DNA of 64,000 nucleotides from Deltaproteobacteria bacterium (GTDB lineage Bacteria; UBA10199; SBBF01). A program made the position numbers and the translations under genes. This document shows, piece after piece, positions 1 through 64,000 of the stretch. Below the pieces are notes generated by a model, which saw nothing but the letters and a program-made list of their open reading frames with translations, was not told the DNA's origin and made no database searches. The first letter of the stretch is position 1, and every line of letters starts with the position of its first letter. The stretch spans positions 41,907-105,906 of the forward strand of contig JACPFC010000026.1 in NCBI GenBank assembly GCA_016183175.1, read 5' to 3'.

Positions 1-295
1 AGTCCATCAGCGCCGCGACTTCCGAGGCGTCAAAGGGGATATCCATCGTTGCCGCCTGGATCAGCCGCATGACCTCCAGCTTGTGGTCAAAGTAATAGTA
101 CTCGTCCAGCGGCGCCTCCCAATCATGACAGGGGGCTTTGCCCGAGCGTCTGATCAGGGTGTTGCGAAACGACTTCAAAAGCGGCAGGTAGGGGTTCTGC
201 GCAACGGTGACCTCCGGATGGACGCTTAAGATCATGTCCAGGAGGTTGGTCCCGCCGCGCGGGGTGCCGCTGATAATCAGGGGTCTTATTGGCAT
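1..295 (-). CDS. Sulfotransferase family protein, partial (C-terminus beyond window start)
   Basis: Minus-strand ORF starting at ATG 293-295 and running off the window. N-terminus MPIRPLIISGTPRGGTNLLDMIL carries the PAPS 5'-phosphosulfate-binding loop typical of sulfotransferases. Paralogous to the 13246..14445 gene. Confidence 0.6.
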   Translation of the reverse strand, partial: MPIRPLIISGTPRGGTNLLDMILSVHPEVTVAQNPYLPLLKSFRNTLIRRSGKAPCHDWEAPLDEYYYFDHKLEVMRLIQAATMDIPFDASEVAALMD

Positions 296-301
296 TGTGC
301 C

Positions 302-2212
302 CTACCTGACATCCCTCAAGTAGTCGCTGGCCCAATCCAGCATGCAGAGGGAAAAGAGGTCGTTTCGTTCCGATCCGGTTGCCTCTTTCCCGTCGAGATA
401 GTTCTTGGTCACGGTATTGATGTGGTTCATATCGAAGATCTCCGGGTCCAGCATCCGCTCGTAGAAACGACCGGCCAGTTGTTTCTTGTGATAGGAGGTA
501 AAGGAGGATCCGTACAGAATTTCGGCCGAATGGTTGAAGTTCGGGTCCACGTCATAGAGATAGGAATGGGGACCGACCTGGAGATGTAGAGGATAATCGA
601 TCTTGTTCTTGAGCATCCACTTCAGGGGGTATTTGGTCGGCCGGATGTCCAGGCCGCGGCCCCAATCTTCCGGCATCGCCGACAGAAAATCAATGAGGCG
701 GCTGTCCCGGAACGGTGTTTGGACATTGATCCCATACTTGTCTCCGGCAAGATCGATGCAGGCCACGGTGGATCCCTGCCAATGGAATGAATTGTACAGG
801 TGGAGGTACCAGGCATAGAGGGTTTCAGGGGTTGCCTCCCGGGAGGCCCTGGCCAGGTAAACCCCCATTGTTTCGTTGTGATGGTCCTGGCCTTTTTTGG
901 TGAGGAGTTTTACGTTCCGTCGGGAAAAGAGGGGGATTCGGCTGTTTCTCAAAAAGAAGCTTTCCAAAACCTGTCTCCGGATGGAGCCTCCACCCGCCGG
1001 TTCGTCGAATTCACAGCCTTTTGCGTTGGAGCGAATGAGGTTATAGATGGGGTCATTTTTAAAGGTTCCCTTTTCCAACAAACCGAGGAAGGTCGGTCCA
1101 TACAAATAGCTTGCCATTTTATCGGCATATTCACGAAATCCCAGATCGGGGTGAAAGACGGTGACGAATTGGCTGAACCCCAGATTGTGCGCCCCGTCGC
1201 TGATTTCACCGACAAACGCCGATTCGCCGCCGTCGGAGGTCTGGGCGATTTTTGCCGCCAGGCGCATGTGGTTCAAAGCGGTAATGCTTGAAATATGTTG
1301 CGATCGGAAGGCGCCGCGGCACTCCTCAAGGTATTCCGGCCCTTTTTTCCAATAGTCGAATTCCGCAATGTCCAGACGCACTCCAAAATAGTCCGCGACC
1401 TTTTTCGCGCGGTCCAGTTCGAACTGGTTGATGATGCCGCTCCGTTCGTTGTAGTTCATCCGTCCGATGACCGCGCGGACCTTCCGGGCGCCGAAAAGAT
1501 GAACGAGACAGGCGAGCAGAGAGGTCGAGTCCCATCCCGAGGAGAGATAAACGACGTTGCCGTAACGGGACCCCCGCTTTTCCACCGCATCGAGGAGCGT
1601 CTCCGAGTATTCCTCCAGTTCCCGATCGCCGTAAAGGCCGATGGGGGTCCCTTTGAATTCCGATTCCCCTATTTCAAGGGAGGTTCCCCGGAGGCGCGCG
1701 GTCTGTCCCACGCCGAGCCGGCTGATACCCGAGTAGAAGGTATGTTGCTTGGGGGGACGGTAGCCGTAGACGGTGAGAAAATGGGCGATCGCCTCCTGGT
1801 TGTATCGGCCGCACTTTCGAACCGGGAGAAGGTCAAGGTCGTTGGCCAGAAGAACCCCCTCCGGAGATTTCACGATGAAGAGATCCGACTGCGCAAACTG
1901 ATCGAGCGTTGTCTCACAGCCGCCCTCCCGGACGACGGCAAGGAGATAGCGTCCCTCGAAAACATTGCGGCACTCTTCCACGGAATGCGAAGAGATATAA
2001 TCCTGAAGAGAGCCCGGCGAGGCCCCCTCGAGGGCTCCGGAGGCGCTACGAATGCCGATAACCCGCCCCGCCAAAAAAGCGGATCGGCCGTCGGGGAAAT
2101 TCAGGCGGGTCACATCGGGATCGGCCTCAATGGTCAGATCGCCGGATTGGTATACTGCCGCAAGCGGGCTCTTCTCAAACCCCTTGCCTTTTCTGATTCT
2201 TAGTTTTTGCAT
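302..2212 (-). CDS. Asparagine synthetase-like amidotransferase (AsnB/WbpS/PseA-like), glycan-modifying
   Basis: 636-aa ORF with the SSGWDSTSL PP-loop (SGGxDS) motif of the asparagine synthase C-terminal domain. It sits in a nonulosonic-acid cluster. No Cys at position 2, so the class-II glutaminase nucleophile is apparently absent. Confidence 0.75.
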   Translation of the reverse strand: MQKLRIRKGKGFEKSPLAAVYQSGDLTIEADPDVTRLNFPDGRSAFLAGRVIGIRSASGALEGASPGSLQDYISSHSVEECRNVFEGRYLLAVVREGGCETTLDQFAQSDLFIVKSPEGVLLANDLDLLPVRKCGRYNQEAIAHFLTVYGYRPPKQHTFYSGISRLGVGQTARLRGTSLEIGESEFKGTPIGLYGDRELEEYSETLLDAVEKRGSRYGNVVYLSSGWDSTSLLACLVHLFGARKVRAVIGRMNYNERSGIINQFELDRAKKVADYFGVRLDIAEFDYWKKGPEYLEECRGAFRSQHISSITALNHMRLAAKIAQTSDGGESAFVGEISDGAHNLGFSQFVTVFHPDLGFREYADKMASYLYGPTFLGLLEKGTFKNDPIYNLIRSNAKGCEFDEPAGGGSIRRQVLESFFLRNSRIPLFSRRNVKLLTKKGQDHHNETMGVYLARASREATPETLYAWYLHLYNSFHWQGSTVACIDLAGDKYGINVQTPFRDSRLIDFLSAMPEDWGRGLDIRPTKYPLKWMLKNKIDYPLHLQVGPHSYLYDVDPNFNHSAEILYGSSFTSYHKKQLAGRFYERMLDPEIFDMNHINTVTKNYLDGKEATGSERNDLFSLCMLDWASDYLRDVR

Positions 2213-2829
2213 CGTGACTCCTTTTTTGTGTTGGTTTTTTCCCAGCGCATGGGCAAAACAGGGATATCGTTAATTTCCGCAAAGGGGGGAATCCACTCCT
2301 CTTTCAGGGCGCTGTAAATCACTTCATCCGCAAACCGGTTCTCGGCCGGAAGATACGCGTTCCCGCGCAGTTGGGCGTCTTTGCGCATCCGCAGTTTTTC
2401 CATGACGCGGATGGAGGCCCTGTTTTCGACAATCGCGCCGGCCTGAACCCGGTGGTACTCCCTTCTTTCAAAAAGATATCTCATGGCCGCCCCCACGGCC
2501 AAAGTGGCAATTCCCCTTCCCTGAACGTTTCTATCGCCGATGAGGTAAGAGATGTCAATCCACCTGTTCTCACGACTCCAGGCGGAGCAGGAGACATTGC
2601 CGATATGCCGCCCCTGATAATAAATCCCCCAGTGGTGGCGTTTTTTGGACTCGCAGTCCTCCAGAAACCGGATTACGTCCTCCTGCTTCAGCGGTTCGCG
2701 GCGATGACGGATCCCGAGATATCGGCGAATTTCAGGGTTGTTCAGCCAGGAGACATAATCCGGCGTCACCTCTTTATCCGTGAGAGGATTCAACCGGATT
2801 TCTTTTGCTATTGTTCCAGGCTGGTCCAT
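2200..2829 (-). CDS. GNAT family N-acetyltransferase (RimL-like; PseH-like candidate)
   Basis: ORF 2200..2991. The GNAT fold motifs (QGRGIAT...A) start after the internal Met at 2829 (MDQPGTIAKEI). The upstream extension overlaps the neighbouring neuB-like gene and is Arg/Pro-rich junk. Confidence 0.7.
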   Translation of the reverse strand: MDQPGTIAKEIRLNPLTDKEVTPDYVSWLNNPEIRRYLGIRHRREPLKQEDVIRFLEDCESKKRHHWGIYYQGRHIGNVSCSAWSRENRWIDISYLIGDRNVQGRGIATLAVGAAMRYLFERREYHRVQAGAIVENRASIRVMEKLRMRKDAQLRGNAYLPAENRFADEVIYSALKEEWIPPFAEINDIPVLPMRWEKTNTKKESRCKN

Positions 2830-3878
2830 CGGATCACGTCCCCCCCGACAATCCTGTGAATCGTTTTGCGGCCCACGACGGCGTCGAGAGACGGGGGCTT
2901 GATGCTTCCTTCCGGCGCCGGGCGGAGCACGTCGATATCTTTGCGTTGCAACAGATGACCTGCGGGCAGGTCGCATTTTGCCCGGAGACAACGCTGCTGG
3001 ACAACAAGACTCTCCCTCTCGTTTTCTTCAACCCGTTTCACCCCGTCTCCCAGCGAGACCTCCAGAAGCCTTGTCAGCTCCACCATTTCCCGCCACGTTG
3101 TGGGATTCATGGCGAATTTGTGGTCCGGCCCCTCGCGATTATTGTCATCCGTGAAATGTTTTTCCACGACCCTTGCTCCAAGGGCCACGGCTCCTAGGGT
3201 CGTAGCCGGGCCGAATGTATGGTCCGAGAGTCCAAGGACAAGATCGGGATAGAGAGATCGGTAGGTTTGGAGGACACGAAGATTCACGTATTTGTAGTTT
3301 TCCGGGCTTGCGGTGTAATTCGTGTTGCACTGCATGAGTACAAGATGGGGATTGATTTTAAGAATAGATTCGACAGCCAACCGGACATCATCGGGCGAAG
3401 CGGCCCCGGTGGCGAGGAGTACAGGTTTCCCTTTTCCCGCAATGTATTGGAGCATCTCAATCCAGGTAATGTCCCCCGAGCCTATCTTGTAGACATCGAC
3501 AAAGGGATCAAGATGGTCGACGCTCTCGAAGTCGTAAGGCGAGGAGAAATAATCGATCCCGACCCGGGCGCATTCTTCCTTTAAAACGGGGGTCCAGTCC
3601 CGTGAAATACTGTAGTCTTGGTAGGCCTCGAAGACCGATTTTTTCCAGCCGGACTGATGGGCCTGCCGCCGGCCAAGGTTCCTGAATCCGTAATCGCTCA
3701 CGATTTTGGGGGCCTGGAAATTCTGGAATTTGGCGGCATCGGCCTTCGCCTCTTTGGCCAGACCGATCAGTTTTTTTGCCCGATCCAGGTCTCCGTCATG
3801 ATTGGCGGCGATGTCCGCGACGAAGTAGGTCGGATGATCGGCGCCGATCTCCCGGCCGCTGATTTTGATGGTTCCCAT
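2808..3878 (-). CDS. N-acetylneuraminate synthase family protein (NeuB/PseI/LegI-type nonulosonic acid synthase)
   Basis: 356 aa. Has the IGxxHxxxxxxAxxLIxxAKxxGADAxKFQ N-terminus, a TIM-barrel region and a C-terminal SAF domain. Confidence 0.85.
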   Translation of the reverse strand: MGTIKISGREIGADHPTYFVADIAANHDGDLDRAKKLIGLAKEAKADAAKFQNFQAPKIVSDYGFRNLGRRQAHQSGWKKSVFEAYQDYSISRDWTPVLKEECARVGIDYFSSPYDFESVDHLDPFVDVYKIGSGDITWIEMLQYIAGKGKPVLLATGAASPDDVRLAVESILKINPHLVLMQCNTNYTASPENYKYVNLRVLQTYRSLYPDLVLGLSDHTFGPATTLGAVALGARVVEKHFTDDNNREGPDHKFAMNPTTWREMVELTRLLEVSLGDGVKRVEENERESLVVQQRCLRAKCDLPAGHLLQRKDIDVLRPAPEGSIKPPSLDAVVGRKTIHRIVGGDVIRWTSLEQ

Positions 3879-5644
3879 CAGATTTTCAAACTCGTATCCA
3901 GTTCGCTTCGGGACAACTTCGGCCGGATGTGCGCGTTCATCCTCGCCGTCTCCGGATGTTGATCCATATAATTCAGCGCCTCCCTCAAGTCCACCGGTTT
4001 CCCGGGCCGGTACAAGGCTTCGTGGAGCGCCTTGAAGAGGTTGAGATCCTCCTCGGTGTCGAGGGTCAGCCGGTAGTCCCGCCGATATTCGGACGGGGCC
4101 TCAAATTTATTCACGACAAAGGCGGTCTCATCATCCAGATACCAGGTGAGATATTCGGTGTTTTCGGGGTAGCCCGCCCTTTCAACGATGGTTTCCAGGG
4201 CCCGCAGGCTGATAATCTCCGTATCGCAACTGTAGGTAACCCCGGTCATCGCCGTGTAATCGGCGTGATTCTTCAGGTGGGATTCGATTGCCCGATCGAT
4301 CAGGGGAACGTCCCGCAAGAGGTCGTCTCCGGTGACGCGAACCACATGGTCGAGGCCGAATTTTTGTCCGGCGAGGAGCAACCGATGGGCTACATTTTCA
4401 TCCGGTCCCCGAAAAACCCGGATCCCCTCCCGGGCGGCAATTTCTGCAAGGATGTCGTCTTCCGGTTTTTCCGTGGTGCAGAGGATGACCTGGTCTGCCC
4501 GGGAACAGTGTTTCATCCTCTCGATCAAGAGGGCAATCGTTTCCCTCCCGCAGATCTTTTTCAAGGCCTTTTGGGGGAGCCGGGTGGATTGGGTCCTGCA
4601 GTTGATGAGAATCCCGACATTCTGCCGGATATCGAGACCGTTGATGAGGCTGTTTTTTCCTATTCGCCCGGCGGTCCGCCGCCGGGAGACAAAGTCCGAG
4701 GGGAGGGGATTGGAAAATTTCGTGGGGCGAACGAATTTCAGCTTTTCACACTCAAGGGGTGCGCCGGCCTCCAGCGCGCCGGCGGAAAAGTATGTCTTGG
4801 CCGCCTTTTCCCGATACCTCTGCCGCCCTTCCGTCCAGACGGGAAATTTACGGCTGACGGCCTCGAGCCCCCGGACGAGAGAGACGAGTCGGGCAAAATC
4901 CTCCGGTTCCACAGCCGACTCATAGTCCTCCCAGCGCCGGGAGCGGTCAAGGGTCAGATGTTTTTCGATGACGACCGCCCCGGCCCCGATGGCCGCCAAC
5001 GGAAAGGCAACGGCCAAAGGGTCTCCTCCGTCAATGTGATCGGCGCAACCGACGATCACGCCCATATCTTTATAGGTTTGGGAAAACCACCTGATCTCAT
5101 CCAGGCTGTGCTCCGAGGGAGGGGTCGGGAATAACTGGTGCCCCGGCAGGAAAACAACGGGGCTGTCGGGGGAAAATGAACGGATCCGTTTGACCGTTCG
5201 GTAGATTTCAACGCGTTTGTGGCCGCCAATGCCCAAAAGAACCGGCTTTCCCGACTTTGCAACCGCCTCCACGAGACAGGCGTTGTCCAGATCCGCCGCA
5301 TGCAGTTTGAAGGCATCGGTCCCGAGCGTTCGGGCCTCTTCAAAGGAATCGGGGCCGAAAATATCGGCAAAGATTGCTACTCCGGCCTCGCGCAATCTCG
5401 CGAAGATCTTCCTCCATGTGTCCATTCCGAATTCCAGTTTCTTGAAAAGGGCGTAATCGGCGTGGTCGGGGTTGCAAAGTTCGTCCGCCTTGTAGAACTG
5501 GAATTTGACGGCGTCCGCACGGCACCGGATGGCCGCGAGAACGAGCTCCAGACACTGATCCGGCGAACCCATGTGGCCCCCGGCAATCTCGGCGATCACC
5601 GTGTATTTCCCTCCCAAAAAAGATTTTTCAAGGGATTGGATCAT
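3878..5644 (-). CDS. Fusion protein: NeuB-like nonulosonic acid synthase (with SAF) plus C-terminal acylneuraminate cytidylyltransferase (SpsE/SpsF-like)
   Basis: ORF 3878..5893. The likely start is Met84 (MIQSLEKS, coordinate 5644), abutting the stop of the GT4 gene. The N-terminal half has VIAEIAGGHMGS...AVKFQ (NeuB). The C-terminal half has GILINCRTQSTRLPQKAL...VRVTGDDLLRD (CTP_transf_3 cytidylyltransferase). Confidence 0.75.
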   Translation of the reverse strand: MIQSLEKSFLGGKYTVIAEIAGGHMGSPDQCLELVLAAIRCRADAVKFQFYKADELCNPDHADYALFKKLEFGMDTWRKIFARLREAGVAIFADIFGPDSFEEARTLGTDAFKLHAADLDNACLVEAVAKSGKPVLLGIGGHKRVEIYRTVKRIRSFSPDSPVVFLPGHQLFPTPPSEHSLDEIRWFSQTYKDMGVIVGCADHIDGGDPLAVAFPLAAIGAGAVVIEKHLTLDRSRRWEDYESAVEPEDFARLVSLVRGLEAVSRKFPVWTEGRQRYREKAAKTYFSAGALEAGAPLECEKLKFVRPTKFSNPLPSDFVSRRRTAGRIGKNSLINGLDIRQNVGILINCRTQSTRLPQKALKKICGRETIALLIERMKHCSRADQVILCTTEKPEDDILAEIAAREGIRVFRGPDENVAHRLLLAGQKFGLDHVVRVTGDDLLRDVPLIDRAIESHLKNHADYTAMTGVTYSCDTEIISLRALETIVERAGYPENTEYLTWYLDDETAFVVNKFEAPSEYRRDYRLTLDTEEDLNLFKALHEALYRPGKPVDLREALNYMDQHPETARMNAHIRPKLSRSELDTSLKI

Positions 5645-45619: not shown

Positions 45620-46411
45620 ATGGGAGACACACGACCCCCTGTTATTTATTTTGATCCCGTGGACAAGAATCTCTTTGAAGAATGCGGGGCCATTTTTCCA
45701 AGCGATCAGAAACCGGGGACGCTCAAACCGGATAATTTCGATGTCACGAATCTTCGTCCGGAACTGCGGAAGCTGTACGCGGGGGAAAATCCTTATTCTT
45801 TTTTTGTGCAGGAATTCCGAACGGGAGGGGGTCACGTCAGCCGGGAACGGATGGAGGAGCTGGCCCCAATCTGCCGCGATCCCGAGGCCTACCTCGATGG
45901 AAAGAAAGGGTTCCCATGCTACTGGTTAGAAGAAAAAACCGGTTTTCCGGGGTGGGTCTGCGAGGCAGGCGCTTGGACGGTGGGAGGGGCGGTGGTCGCC
46001 GAAGGGGTGCGAAGAGGGATCAAATATGTCCGCCAAAAGCCCGGTGGCGGGGATCCTCCCACGGAACCGCCGGCCGGTTCGGCTCCGGCGGGAGAACCGG
46101 CTCCTGCGGGTGCTCCTCAAGGAGATGGGCCAGCCGTGGTCCCTCCCGAGGCGCCGCCGGTTGAGGGGGATCAACAGGCCGAATGGTCGGTTCCTTCCAT
46201 CGACTGGGCGACCGCCGGCTACATCGCGCTCGGCACGGGGCTTGCTGTGGGGGCGGTGGTGCTTTTTTGCATCCCTTTTGACGGTCCATTTGGCGAGGGG
46301 GCGGCGGGGGCCGGATCGATCGCCAGCTTTACCGCCGCCGCGGCGCGGCTGGGACTTTTTTCCTCCCCGATGACGGCCCCTGTGTTGGCCTACGCCCGTA
46401 CCCTGCGATAA
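45620..46411 (+). CDS. Hypothetical protein (263 aa), Pro-rich linker plus C-terminal transmembrane helix; translationally coupled to the 947-aa gene
   Basis: GGAGG Shine-Dalgarno sequence and ATG 2 nt after the upstream stop. C-terminal AGYIALGTGLAVGAVVLFCIPF TM segment. Confidence 0.55.
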   Translation: MGDTRPPVIYFDPVDKNLFEECGAIFPSDQKPGTLKPDNFDVTNLRPELRKLYAGENPYSFFVQEFRTGGGHVSRERMEELAPICRDPEAYLDGKKGFPCYWLEEKTGFPGWVCEAGAWTVGGAVVAEGVRRGIKYVRQKPGGGDPPTEPPAGSAPAGEPAPAGAPQGDGPAVVPPEAPPVEGDQQAEWSVPSIDWATAGYIALGTGLAVGAVVLFCIPFDGPFGEGAAGAGSIASFTAAAARLGLFSSPMTAPVLAYARTLR

Positions 46412-57678: not shown

Positions 57679-58296
57679 GTGTCTACCAAACTGCGAGTTC
57701 TTGGCAATGACGAAGCGGCTTCTGACGAGGCATTGATGGCCTCCTACCAGAAAGGGGACCTGCATGCCTTTGAGGTTTTGCTCACCCGCCATCAAAAGGG
57801 AATTTATAATTTTCTTTACCGGTTTTTGGGGCACAATCAGAACACGGAGGAGGCCTTTCAGGAGGTTTTTGAGAGGGTGATCCGCGGGGCCTCCTCCTAT
57901 GCCCCCACGGCGCGGTTTTCCACCTGGCTTTATACCATCGCGAGAAACTACTGCATCGATCTGTCCCGAAAGGGGCGTTTCAGAAAAACCGTTTCGCTGG
58001 ACGACGCGCCCTCTGAAGAGAAGGCTCTCCCCTTGAGTGAACGGGTCGTCTCCGCAGAGCCGAATCCCGACGAAATAGTCTCTGCCTCCAATCTGGAACA
58101 AAAACTGGAAGAGGCCCTGGCCCGGATCAACCCCGATCAGCGGGAGGTGTTCCTCCTGCGCGAAAGGCAGGGGCTTCCTTTCGAGGAGATCGCTCAAATC
58201 GTGGAGGTTTCGGTCAATACGGTAAAAAGCCGGATGCGGTATGCCCTTTCGGCCCTTCAAAATGAGTTTAAAAAATTGGGGATAACAGATCATTAA
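57679..58296 (+). CDS. ECF-type RNA polymerase sigma factor (sigma-70 family, group 4)
   Basis: GTG start. Region 2 FEVLLTRHQKGIYNFLYRF...FSTWLYTIARN and region 4 LPFEEIAQIVEVSVNTVKSRM. Confidence 0.85.
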   Translation: MSTKLRVLGNDEAASDEALMASYQKGDLHAFEVLLTRHQKGIYNFLYRFLGHNQNTEEAFQEVFERVIRGASSYAPTARFSTWLYTIARNYCIDLSRKGRFRKTVSLDDAPSEEKALPLSERVVSAEPNPDEIVSASNLEQKLEEALARINPDQREVFLLRERQGLPFEEIAQIVEVSVNTVKSRMRYALSALQNEFKKLGITDH

Positions 58297-58320
58297 GGAA
58301 ATTCATGCGTTGAATAAGGG

Positions 58321-59253
58321 GTGACAATGGACTGCCCGAAGATTCAAGACAATCTGCTCGATATCATCTACGAAGAGGCCTCTTCCGCTGTCCGCGAAAA
58401 GGTAGAGGCCCATTTGACCTCATGCCGGGCCTGCCGAGAGGAGATAAATCAACTCATTGAAATAAGGTCAGTTTTCAGCAAACTCCCCGATTGTGAGCCG
58501 GCTTCTCGTCTTGTGAGCAATGTCATGGCTTTGGCCCGGTATACCCCCGGCACCGGCCCTGCCGGCAAGGCCCGTTACCCGTTACTTGTTACTCGTCACT
58601 CGTCACTCGTTGGGCGGTTTTTGGATGCTTTTTTTGTTCTCCGTCCGGTCCCCTTGATGGTTGCGGCGTCGATGATTTTGGCGGTAACCCTCCTTTTTAA
58701 TTCAAGGGCCCCTTTGCAGTCTCCTTCCTATTCCTCCCTTCCCGATCATGATTTGTTTGTCGTCAACGAGGCGGCCCTTCGGGAGCGGGTGCTGGAAAAT
58801 CCTTTTGAAATCGAAAACCCCGCCTTCGATCTGAAATATAGGGATCCTTCGGGCAGGATGCAGGCGGTTTCTCCCGGCTTCAACATGGAAATTCTTGACG
58901 ATGGGGCTTCTCTTGCAGGCATCGAGAAGATTCTGATGGAGAGGCGAAAGATGCTTGTGGAGGCCGACGCCGACAGCCTGATGATGCGCGGAAGGCGCCT
59001 GAAGGCGATGGGGAGGGTCGATATGGCCCTCAAGGATTTTGAGACGATCTACCGTTTTTATCCCGACTACACCTACATCGGCGATGTCCTTATCTATCGC
59101 GCGCAGTGCCATGCCGTTTTGGGGGAGTACGACAGGGCCCTCGAAGGCCTCGATGTCTATTCCGCCAAATTCCCGGAGAAGGCCTCTTTTGTCCGGTCGA
59201 TAATCGAACAGGTCGAAGGCCGGAAGACAAAAGAAAAACCTCCTTTACAATAA
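58321..59253 (+). CDS. Anti-sigma factor (zf-HC2 zinc-finger type) with TM helix
   Basis: N-terminal [11 protein letters not shown] zinc motif; TM segment [16 protein letters not shown]. Directly downstream of the ECF sigma gene. Confidence 0.7.
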
Positions 59254-61810: not shown

Positions 61811-61936
61811 CTCAAACAAAAAGGGTCCCTTTGTCTTCGCAATTTTCGTAAGCCGCTTAAGAGTCGGCCTGTCTCGCCGGAGATGTAGCTGGCGGGAACG
61901 AAAATTGCTTCGTCAAAGGGACCCTTTTTGTTTGAG
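61811..61936. terminator. Very long imperfect palindrome (~39-bp arms, ~48-nt loop) acting as probable bidirectional terminator
   Basis: ctcaaacaaaaagggtccctttgtcttcgcaattttcgt ... acgaaaattgcttcgtcaaagggaccctttttgtttgag, between convergent pnp and 61938..63401. Confidence 0.6.
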
Positions 61937-61937
61937 G

Positions 61938-63401
61938 TTATTTCTTTTTTCCGCCGCCGGGCGGAGTTGCCGGCGGACCGCCGCCGCCGCTGTTTCCGGG
62001 CGAGGTATCCGTCGTAGAAGTATCCGTTGTAGAGGTGTCGGTACTGCTGTTGGTCGTCGTCGTTGTATTGTCCACCACCGCCCCGTTGCCGCTGTCGACA
62101 TACACCGAATGAGTCACGGTGGTGGAATGGTCGGTTGTGTGGCCGCCGCCGTTGCCGTTGTTCTCCACGGTGGATGTCGTCTCGGTGGTCGTACTGCCGG
62201 TCTTATCCAGGATGATTCCCCCTTCGTCCTTGTACTCGATTGTCATGCTCCCTTCAATCGACGTTGAATGTTCAACTTCGGCGGTAGCTCCGTCTGTCGT
62301 CTCCCCCTTGGGTTTGCCTTTCTTGTTTCCCTTCTCGGCGATGGCCGATGACTCGTCCGCCGTGAATTCTCCCTCAAATTCGCTGTCCTCCACGGCGCCC
62401 GATTTGATGTTTTTCATCGAGGTGTTCCCCTTCACATGCGAGGAGGTCATTGTGAGGTCTTCGATGGTATCCAGGGCGAGGTTGGCATCCACGGTGAGTT
62501 CTTCAAGAACCACCTTCGCGCAGTCGGCAATGGAGAGGTCCGATATCGTTGTCGGGTCGATAAAAACATAGGCGGAGCCGCTGATGGTCACACGGCCGTT
62601 GATGGTGGAGTCGATGATCGTGATTTCATCCAGATCGGAAAGGTCCACGTCCCGATTGAGCGTTTTTCCTTCCATGGTGAAGGAGCGGACCAGCGTGCCT
62701 GTTTCGTCATAGTATTCGGAAAAGAAGTCTACAAAACCGTCGCCATCTTCATCGGTTTCATTCACGTCGAGGATGCCGTCGTTGTCGTCGTCCAAATCTT
62801 CCAGATCGTTGTATCCGTCGTTGTCGTCATCCGTAAGTTCGAGCGGGTTCACTTCGGGAACCGCCCACTGGTCGCGTTGAGCCACCACCCCCAGATCCAT
62901 CTCTTCCGTGGCGTTGTCGAGAAGGAGGGTATCGGTCGTCCGCGAGTTCTTTGTATCCAAGCCGAACACCATCGTTGCCAGATATTCCCCTCCCGCGAAA
63001 AGCTCCACGCGCGAGGCGGTCTCTTTTCTCGCCTTCACGGCGAACGAGCCGTCGTCGTTGGTGACCGTTGAGAAGGAATCCCCCATCGAATTGGTCAGGA
63101 CGACAAGAACATCGCCGTCCCCATCGGCCGACTCATCTCCATCGGCGCTTAAATTTACGTGAAGGGCGGGGATTGAACTGCCGCCGGATGAAGCAGGGAG
63201 CTGGAGCGAAGAGAATGCGGAAGAATCGTCGGAATTCAGATCGACCTCGCCGGTGATCAAACCGAATCCCGGTGTCGGTCTTGTGGCCGGGTTTGTGCTC
63301 AACGGTCCCACCGTCTGGTCGGTCCCGCAATGATTCAAGAGGACCCCCAAACCGATAAGGGCAACTGTCGACAACAACCCTCTTTTCGCCCCAAGAAGCA
63401 T
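61938..63401 (-). CDS. Secreted acidic protein with thrombospondin-type-3/Ca-binding-like Asp-rich repeats and Thr/Ser-rich C-terminal tail
   Basis: Signal peptide MLLGAKRGLLSTVALIGLGVLLNHC; DDDNDGYNDLEDLDDDNDGILDVNETDEDGDGFVD; C-terminal STTDTSTTDTSTTDTS and GGGGPPATPPGGGKKK. Confidence 0.6.
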   Translation of the reverse strand: MLLGAKRGLLSTVALIGLGVLLNHCGTDQTVGPLSTNPATRPTPGFGLITGEVDLNSDDSSAFSSLQLPASSGGSSIPALHVNLSADGDESADGDGDVLVVLTNSMGDSFSTVTNDDGSFAVKARKETASRVELFAGGEYLATMVFGLDTKNSRTTDTLLLDNATEEMDLGVVAQRDQWAVPEVNPLELTDDDNDGYNDLEDLDDDNDGILDVNETDEDGDGFVDFFSEYYDETGTLVRSFTMEGKTLNRDVDLSDLDEITIIDSTINGRVTISGSAYVFIDPTTISDLSIADCAKVVLEELTVDANLALDTIEDLTMTSSHVKGNTSMKNIKSGAVEDSEFEGEFTADESSAIAEKGNKKGKPKGETTDGATAEVEHSTSIEGSMTIEYKDEGGIILDKTGSTTTETTSTVENNGNGGGHTTDHSTTVTHSVYVDSGNGAVVDNTTTTTNSSTDTSTTDTSTTDTSPGNSGGGGPPATPPGGGKKK

Positions 63402-63465
63402 GAACCCCCCTTCCCCCTAAAGGCGGACTACAGGCATTATTACTATACTTCTAATATAGTTATTA

Positions 63466-63481
63466 TGCAAGATTCGTTCCA
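63466..63481 (-). promoter_or_regulatory. Candidate sigma-54 promoter (TGGAAC-N5-TTGCA) for the secreted acidic protein gene
   Basis: Minus-strand reading TGGAACgaatcTTGCA, ~65 nt upstream of start codon 63401. Confidence 0.5.
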
Positions 63482-63562
63482 CTTTTTGTAATAATAATCC
63501 GTTTAAATTTCAGCTTGTTATGGATAGTAACCCATCCAGTAGTTATTTAATAGAGGTAAAAA

Positions 63563-63589
63563 TTACCCATAAAATATAAAAATGGGTAA
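63563..63589. promoter_or_regulatory. Perfect palindrome TTACCCAT-N11-ATGGGTAA (candidate enhancer/UAS for sigma-54 activator)
   Basis: ~100 bp upstream of the putative -24/-12 element, in the AT-rich intergenic region. Confidence 0.4.
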
Positions 63590-63638
63590 CATTGGTTGAT
63601 AGGATTTTGACAAAGGCTTAACAGAATTTTGACAAGCG

Positions 63639-64000
63639 CTATTTTTCTATCTGGTAGCGTTTGATGAGGCGGGAGACCTGCGGGCGGGGCATCTGGAGAT
63701 GTTCCGCCGCCTTTCCCACGCGCCCTTCGTGAAGCTTCAGCACCCGCAGAATCTGCTTTTTTTCAAAGGCCTGCTTGGCCTCGGGGAGGGTTATTTTTCG
63801 TTCGTCGATGGCCTTCGCCAGGTCATCGGGGGTCGTGTCCGCCGGGAACTGTGATGGAGGCAGAACCGCGGGGGATCCGCTCCCGTCAAAAAGGTCCTTT
63901 CTCGCTTCCACCTCTTTTAGGGTGATCCGTTCCGCCTCGGAAAAGACACAGAGGTTATAGAGGGTGTTTTCCAGCTGGCGGACATTTCCCGGCCAGGTCT
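63639..64000 (-). CDS. Sigma-54-dependent Fis-family transcriptional activator, partial (N-terminus beyond window end)
   Basis: In-frame continuation to the window edge encodes ...TWPGNVRQLENTLYNLCVF... (the AAA+ sigma-54 activator signature) followed by a Fis-type HTH, AAEHLQMPRPQVSRLIKRY. Confidence 0.8.
   Translation of the reverse strand, partial: TWPGNVRQLENTLYNLCVFSEAERITLKEVEARKDLFDGSGSPAVLPPSQFPADTTPDDLAKAIDERKITLPEAKQAFEKKQILRVLKLHEGRVGKAAEHLQMPRPQVSRLIKRYQIEK

Follow-up and report, generated by a model that had tools for sequence, protein, structure and literature searches.

The 64,000-nucleotide (nt) stretch of contig JACPFC010000026.1 analyzed here, which we call the window, closes with two genes read from the minus strand: the 3' end of a gene for a sigma-54 enhancer-binding protein (63639..64000), which runs past the window end, and, downstream of it, a gene for a probable lipoprotein of 487 amino acids (61938..63401; MBI2339424.1, 'hypothetical protein'). 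The stop codon of the activator gene (TAG, 63641-63639 on the minus strand, the coding strand of the locus) is separated from the lipoprotein open reading frame (ORF; 487 codons, with its ATG at 63401 and a G-rich Shine-Dalgarno stretch ahead of it) by a spacer of 238 nt with a G+C content of 34%. We propose that this spacer probably controls a sigma-54 transcription unit of one gene, whose activator is encoded next door. A preliminary description of the window had named the sequence features on which such a proposal can be built, and all of them were found on the minus strand exactly where it had placed them, though not all kept the role that it gave them.

The -24/-12 element and its counterparts in related loci

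At 63466..63481 on the minus strand the spacer carries TGGAACGAATCTTGCA, a candidate promoter of the -24/-12 type in which the doublets GG (63480-63479) and GC (63468-63467) stand in the arrangement GG-N10-GC. It agrees with the sigma-54 consensus TGGCACG-N4-TTGCW at 15 of 16 positions (1 mismatch), with both doublets intact, and lies on the same strand as the lipoprotein gene, 64 nt from its ATG; the TGGAAC-N5-TTGCA previously read about 65 nt before the start codon is thus present at 63481..63466. Its orientation and distance agree with the criterion of Francke et al., a range of -50 to 300 nt for a sigma-54 promoter relative to the gene start (PMC3162934). Matches were scored by consensus mismatches and by shuffling, in place of a weight matrix. 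When dinucleotide shuffles of the spacer were read on the coding strand, 4 of 20,000 equalled the match of TGGAACGAATCTTGCA; across the entire window and both strands, 2 sites with at most 1 mismatch were found where 0.43 were expected.

The lipoprotein family in which we looked for counterparts of this element is very small. A word-indexed search yielded 5 proteins and an exhaustive profile search 2 more full-length-like members, and scans with a lipoprotein profile recovered only L005 and L007, both already known, from a genome collection and had zero matches in a metagenome collection. Within this family the element recurs upstream of lipoprotein genes in three further loci. Perfect matches to the consensus (0 mismatches) stand 48 nt ahead of the start in L006 (TGGCACGCATTTTGCT; 2 of 20,000 shuffles as good) and 35 nt ahead of it in L017a, the first of two lipoprotein genes of locus L017 (TGGCACGCCATTTGCA; 0 of 10,000). 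The second gene of that locus, L017b, is likewise preceded by an element, with 2 mismatches at 63 nt (TGGCACCAATCTTGCG; 37 of 10,000), and in L003 a weaker one with 3 mismatches lies 55 nt ahead of the start (TGGCATAAATATTGAT; 273 of 20,000). Of five upstream regions that could be evaluated, four have such an element at 35-64 nt, two of them as perfect matches. The L005 sequence ends 75 nt upstream of its lipoprotein gene and gives no support. Distant relatives encoded in DUF4423 operons that have no activator gene reach at best 4-5 mismatches to the sigma-54 consensus upstream, and because these lack the element that the family loci carry, the -24/-12 element is conserved in, and specific to, the lipoprotein clade. 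These relatives (L019 564-2104, L020 1676-4624, and L021 293-1875) are shorter, correspond to the N-terminal half of the lipoprotein, and follow DUF4423 (PF14394) genes within one and the same run, immediately so in L019 and L021; with no sigma-54 activator or promoter at these loci, the wider family is found in a different regulatory setting.

Chance agreement in AT-rich intergenic DNA has to be considered, and the second site in the window with at most 1 mismatch, which lies in a coding region, does look like such a product. However, as few spacer shuffles were as good as the element, as four more upstream regions, all of other organisms, have it at a comparable distance ahead of the start codon, and as an activator gene adjoins the spacer, we regard chance as a very remote explanation for TGGAACGAATCTTGCA. 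The second site (CGGCACGGGGCTTGCT, 46231-46246, plus strand, 1 mismatch) was itself rejected as a promoter, being intragenic (within the G+C-rich ORF 45620-46411) and probably fortuitous. Some 250 nt past it come a short ORF and then a PIN-domain gene; the two, which may form a toxin-antitoxin pair, have a TTGACA-type promoter of their own.

A more substantial alternative is that the lipoprotein gene is mainly transcribed from an overlapping sigma-70-type promoter and that the -24/-12 likeness is secondary, a TTGGCA-like -24 box resembling a -35 hexamer. Several observations speak for this and so weigh against sigma-54 control. In L003, the closest orthologous locus, GA replaces the nearly invariant GC at -12, and the sequence TTGGCA-18-TATAAT, matching the sigma-70 consensus at 11 of 12 positions, overlaps bases of the -24 box. 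P0003, the second of two tandem paralogues in L004 (3-1433 and 1737-3158), has no -24/-12 element ahead of its gene and instead a sigma-70-type promoter (TTGAAA-17-TACAAT, 10/12), and L005 has TATAAT at the aligned homologous position. Apart from the question of sigma-70, it also counts against the proposal that neither rpoN nor an IHF gene was found among the sampled ORFs of the window and that all sequences compared are metagenome assemblies. By eye, the window also offers TGGAAC-17-TATATT and TTGCAT-17-TATAGT, but each matches at only 8 of 12 positions, and the promoter tool found no sigma-70-type promoter above its threshold on the minus strand of the window. Sigma-70 sites at the promoters of L017 and L006 do not rise above background, yet their sigma-54 elements are perfect or near-perfect; moreover, an AT-rich stretch after the -12 box is expected of the melting region of any promoter, and the -10-like hexamers vary from locus to locus in their distance from the -12 element. 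We prefer sigma-54 for the window because it has no sigma-70 site over the threshold and because L017 and L006 have perfect elements with no sigma-70 counterpart, and we consider a mainly sigma-70-driven gene improbable here. Some family members may nevertheless use, or have switched to, sigma-70, a state from which the window would be two substitutions away, and paralogues within one locus, as in L004, may depend on different sigma factors. That sigma-54 is present in the host is implied by the enhancer-binding protein gene itself.

On these grounds we assign the -24/-12 element upstream of the lipoprotein gene to sigma-54 with high, though not complete, confidence. From the usual distance of 12 nt after the GC we infer a transcription start near 63455 and a 5' untranslated region of about 54 nt. 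The -12 element and the predicted start are both spanned by an inverted repeat with arms of 14 nt, GCATAATAACTATA-N7-TATAGTAATAATGC (63434-63447 and 63455-63468, both strands; 86% complementary), which has a fold z-score of -1.6 and for which inspection by eye found no counterpart in L003. An operator function is possible for it, as is a chance origin in AT-rich DNA. An Rfam scan of the whole window, together with a permissive scan of 63300-63750, returned zero matches and hence no known riboswitch or small RNA.

The adjoining activator gene

The part of the upstream gene inside the window encodes the final 119 codons of its product, with the motif TWPGNVRQLEN and the domains AAA_lid_14 and HTH_8 (E-value 3e-07 on this fragment), so that the earlier identification of the adjacent partial gene (63639..64000) as a sigma-54 activator with a WPGNVRQLEN motif and a Fis-type helix-turn-helix (HTH) holds. 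Logan contig L001, identical to the window, lengthens the gene to 373 codons and brings a GSFTGA loop into view. The full-length protein, P0007 (MBI2339425.1, 563 amino acids, already annotated as 'sigma 54-interacting transcriptional regulator'), comprises a GAF domain, Sigma54_activat (PF00158, 4.8e-69; motifs GESGTGKE, TLFLDEIG and GSFTGA), the lid, and HTH_8 (3.3e-06), and hence both the AAA+ sigma-54 interaction domain and the C-terminal Fis-type HTH by which enhancer-binding proteins are recognized. None of the NCBIfam equivalog cutoffs was reached by P0007, the top model being nifA (TIGR01817; 2.9e-103, 346.5 bits against a cutoff of 528.85), and the protein is therefore treated as an unnamed GAF-type activator.

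The arrangement of activator gene, sigma-54 promoter and lipoprotein gene, in that order, is found in three organisms, represented by the window, L003 and L017. The L003 lipoprotein gene follows the C-terminal end of an activator gene whose final 21 HTH residues are identical to those of the window. L017, whose activator orthologue came to light through the lipoprotein profile search, encodes a protein of 1227 amino acids (250-3933) ahead of its two lipoprotein paralogues; over its C-terminal 560 residues it has 69% identity to P0007, all 563 amino acids of which are covered, and the loop reads GAFTGA. The recognition helix, HLQMPRPQVSRLIKRY, is identical in all three. At its N-terminus the L017 activator has a Ser/Thr protein kinase and a TPR region fused to the GAF-AAA+-HTH part, and the first residue of P0007 aligns exactly with an internal MEYQ of this orthologue; in the window organism the activator gene may accordingly be split, its product may be shorter, or the start may have been mis-called. 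These loci together make up, as far as sequence comparison can tell, a small module of activator and lipoprotein genes that is conserved among uncultured bacteria of groundwater.

Activator genes often share a transcriptional neighbourhood with their targets (PMC3162934), and the conserved gene order points the same way. We therefore think it likely that the neighbouring activator is the cognate regulator of the lipoprotein promoter. The competing view, that the promoter is real but is served by another enhancer-binding protein encoded elsewhere while the neighbour controls some other target, such as genes past the window end, draws on L006, where a perfect sigma-54 promoter precedes a family member with no adjacent activator gene, and on the position of the 5' end of the activator gene and its upstream region outside the window. 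Against it stand the order conserved in three organisms, activator gene first and lipoprotein gene second, with each spacer holding a sigma-54 promoter, and the common sample of origin of L006 and L017, both of which have an element of the GTCAATTTTT type, so that the L017 activator may act on L006 in trans. We rate this competing view as quite unlikely and retain the neighbouring gene product as the probable regulator.

Outside the lipoprotein family, TGG-N8-TTGCW occurs just 3' of the activator gene in 6 of 9 unrelated loci, all nine retrieved only through a similar activator C-terminus. L010, L011 and L012 (at about 4296-4314), and also L013, L015 and L016, encode large TPR-GAF-AAA+ activators with an RLIKRYQI helix, and in each of them TGG-N8-TTGCW stands on the activator's strand within some 180-300 nt past its gene. 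For L010 and L012, where that strand has no sizeable ORF beyond the motif, a small protein or an RNA may be what is made. A metagenome scan with the HTH peptide returned only activators of 38-50% identity, none with TTACCC...GGGTA sites.

Candidate activator-binding sites in the spacer

Upstream of the promoter lies a perfect palindrome of 27 bp, TTACCCAT-N11-ATGGGTAA (63563..63589, both strands), centred at about -121 and 96 bp from the promoter GG. No other copy with up to 3 mismatches occurs in the window (0.14 expected), and 3 of the 25 matches to TTACCCAT that the window holds in total (at most 1 mismatch) are packed into the 62 bp of 63528..63589. The palindrome, earlier called enhancer-like, is present as described. 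Its conservation is another matter. L003 keeps it approximately, with N14 where the window has N15 between the TTACCC and GGGTA cores and with one arm imperfect, and it is absent from L017 and L006; judged by these loci, the palindrome as a whole is not a conserved unit, and that it acts as such as the enhancer is a tentative idea that we are inclined to doubt.

With one and the same recognition helix in the window, L003 and L017, a shared binding site is nevertheless to be expected. An exhaustive k-mer comparison was used to find the element of the window best shared with L017a, L017b and L006, and the best shared 11-13-mer was AATTTTTACCTCT / GGTAATTTTTACC at 63567-63552, which 0-2 of 200 shuffles equalled. 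This sequence, consisting of the right arm of the palindrome and the next 10 nt (a T-tract and ACC), defines a candidate activator-binding core, ATGGGTAATTTTTACCTCT (63552..63570, minus strand), which is unique in the window and holds the dyad GGTAA-TTT-TTACC (GGTAATTTTTACC, 63555..63567). The core is centred at -106 in the window, -86 in L003, -75 in L017a, -86 in L017b and -88 in L006, offsets that mostly differ by about 10-11 or 20 bp, or roughly whole helical turns. Telling against this assignment, the shared element is T-rich and known from only five sequences, and the dyad is degenerate in L017a and L006. We put the chance that the GGTAA-TTT-TTACC dyad, which overlaps the palindrome, is the core activator-binding site at about even. 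To our knowledge, though no systematic search was made, neither this dyad nor TTACCCAT matches a known activator site.

A third copy of the half-site, ATGGGTTAC (reverse complement GTAACCCAT; 63527..63535, minus strand), lies inside TGGAT-N8-ATCCA and overlaps a weak IHF-like string, TAACTACTGGATG; the stretch is missing from L003, where the alignment has a gap of 20 nt. Altogether four half-sites of the TTACC(C/T) type follow one another in alternating orientation from 63589 to 63527, an arrangement that would accommodate two or more dimers. Sites resembling the IHF consensus (0-1 mismatch) occur near -50 in L006 (1698-1710) and L017 (4005-4017 and 5523-5535), which derive from one sample. 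We claim no IHF site in the window, where the nearest candidate is a string with 2 mismatches (63531-63543) at about -82 rather than -50.

Between the palindrome and the activator gene, directly after its stop codon, is a tandem direct repeat of 22 nt (63596..63639, minus strand; 77% identity, spacing 22). Each copy contains TTGTCAAAAT (ATTTTGACAA on the plus strand), at 63604-63613 and 63626-63635, and these are the two direct repeats already seen in the preliminary description. The L003 equivalent has a single TCTCAAAAT, and strings of the TTTTGAC type also occur in L017 and L006. The tandem repeat may be a second protein-binding element.

The palindrome may also be explained without any role in activation, as the intrinsic terminator of the activator gene and nothing else, the activator then binding elsewhere (at the T-tract dyad, at the repeats of TTGTCAAAAT, or beyond the window) or not regulating the lipoprotein gene at all. 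As RNA the palindrome would form a 9-bp stem with an 11-nt loop (-9.9 kcal/mol, z -2.5) followed by UUUUUA, 50 nt past the stop codon, a further point that detracts from an enhancer role. In L017a a different inverted repeat (ATGAC...GUCAU) stands ahead of the same T-tract, and this, in spite of the identical HTH, looks like conservation of structure rather than of sequence; the left arm of the palindrome, moreover, is not conserved beyond L003. Set against this, a terminator scan does not call the palindrome, its loop being 11 nt long and its stem having only 3 G-C pairs, in L003 a structure other than the hairpin has the lowest energy, and the T-tract/ACC element is also found where there is neither a hairpin nor an upstream activator gene, at L017b and at a second L006 site. 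The two roles are in any case compatible. We consider a purely terminating palindrome somewhat unlikely. It had been put forward as an observation that would overturn the regulatory reading; folding indicates that a hairpin with U5 is possible, and such a terminator would leave the promoter assignment untouched. The palindrome may thus serve as an extra activator site or as a weak hairpin terminating the activator gene, or do both, and we continue with the overlapping dyad as the candidate core.

The probable lipoprotein and the proposed control unit

The product of the target gene has a hydrophobic N-terminus followed by Cys25-Gly26, invariant in 6 of 6 aligned sequences. The homologues have canonical lipoboxes (LTC, FSC, and FAC), the window protein an atypical one (LNHC). 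The protein is accordingly a probable lipoprotein with a signal peptide, and the 'secreted' of the earlier account is better read in this sense. The same account had called it calcium-binding-like, acidic and Thr-repeated; acidic repeats of the DxDxDG type (residues ~187-225) and a Thr-rich tail are indeed present, but calcium binding found no confirmation from any family model, with neither TSP_3 nor another calcium-binding Pfam family matching at E <= 0.1. No Pfam or NCBIfam family matched the protein, and a profile of the DxDxDG region matches many long repeat proteins. The AlphaFold model has a mean predicted local distance difference test score of 51 and is confident only for residues ~240-360, which are all-beta; a fold search of the PDB with it returned nothing below E 0.1.

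Downstream, where the lipoprotein gene and pnp converge, the interval between them is filled by an inverted repeat with arms of 39 nt (61811-61849 and 61898-61936, both strands; 90% complementary, 48 nt between the arms). We take the lipoprotein gene to be monocistronic because this repeat separates its 3' end from pnp. The repeat (61811..61936) is probably a bidirectional terminator and may alternatively be an element of the repetitive extragenic palindromic or miniature inverted-repeat transposable type. A similarly nested palindromic block was seen by eye after the first paralogue in L004 (1437-1560). Upstream of rpsO and pnp, at 57679-59253, are an ECF sigma factor gene and then a gene for a TPR protein that is probably an anti-sigma factor, and the order TPR-rpsO-pnp-lipoprotein is common to the window and L005.

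We propose the following course of events. Sigma-54 RNA polymerase would bind TGGAACGAATCTTGCA, with GG at -24 and GC at -12, as a closed complex that, once activated, would start transcription near 63455. The activator would be the GAF-AAA+-HTH product of the adjacent upstream gene on the same strand, its signal presumably sensed by the GAF domain. It would bind the cluster of TTACC(C/T)/GGGTAA half-sites between about -85 and -125, of which the GGTAA-TTT-TTACC dyad near -106 is the putative conserved core, form an ATPase ring, and touch sigma-54 through its GSFTGA loop by looping of the intervening DNA, so that the promoter opens. The output would be an acidic, beta-rich surface lipoprotein, and any part played by IHF is no more than suggested by the sites in the related loci. 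In this form the self-contained sigma-54 unit of the preliminary description stands in two of its parts, the promoter and the link to the activator, which the gene order in the window, L003 and L017 supports, and is weakened in a third, the palindrome as its enhancer. A bolder version would see in the locus the output of a signalling pathway peculiar to a little-known lineage, in which a GAF activator, fused to a Ser/Thr kinase and TPR region in at least one relative, acts through an undescribed T-tract dyad that doubles as the terminator hairpin and U-tract of the activator gene, and switches on a private family of acidic beta-solenoid surface lipoproteins; we hold this to be unlikely.

The design as such is that of a textbook sigma-54 promoter with an enhancer, and this example of it is previously undescribed. 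Mildly unusual are the kinase/TPR extension of the L017 activator and the possible double use of a hairpin and T-tract as terminator and enhancer. Our understanding of sigma-54 regulation itself is unchanged by it; what the analysis offers is a testable regulatory assignment for two generically annotated proteins, MBI2339424.1 and MBI2339425.1, and a candidate for the DNA element that an unnamed class of GAF-type activators recognizes.

The proposed unit resembles the classical systems glnAp2/NtrC and nifH/NifA in its GG-N10-GC promoter and in candidate dyad activator sites about 75-125 bp upstream with half-sites some three helical turns apart, and its activator resembles NtrC and NifA in combining an AAA+ domain with a GAFTGA-type loop and a C-terminal HTH of the Fis type. 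For L006 and L017, IHF-like sites at about -50 extend the likeness to glnAp2 and nifH. Unlike these, the putative target is a single lipoprotein gene and not a metabolic operon. P0007 shares the order GAF, AAA+ and HTH_8 with activators of the NifA and FhlA types, although its nifA score is far below the cutoff, and its L017 orthologue differs from those types in the additional N-terminal Ser/Thr kinase and TPR region. In contrast to the Borrelia Rrp2-RpoN system, the activator has a GAF domain and not a receiver domain, the lipoprotein family is unrelated, and the organism is an uncultured one known from a metagenome and labelled Deltaproteobacteria. Sigma-54 regulons are enriched for functions at the cell exterior, lipoproteins among them (Francke et al. 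2011, PMC3162934), and a surface lipoprotein gene with a putative sigma-54 promoter and an adjoining activator gene is in keeping with this exterior-directed control, of which the Borrelia system is an example cited there.

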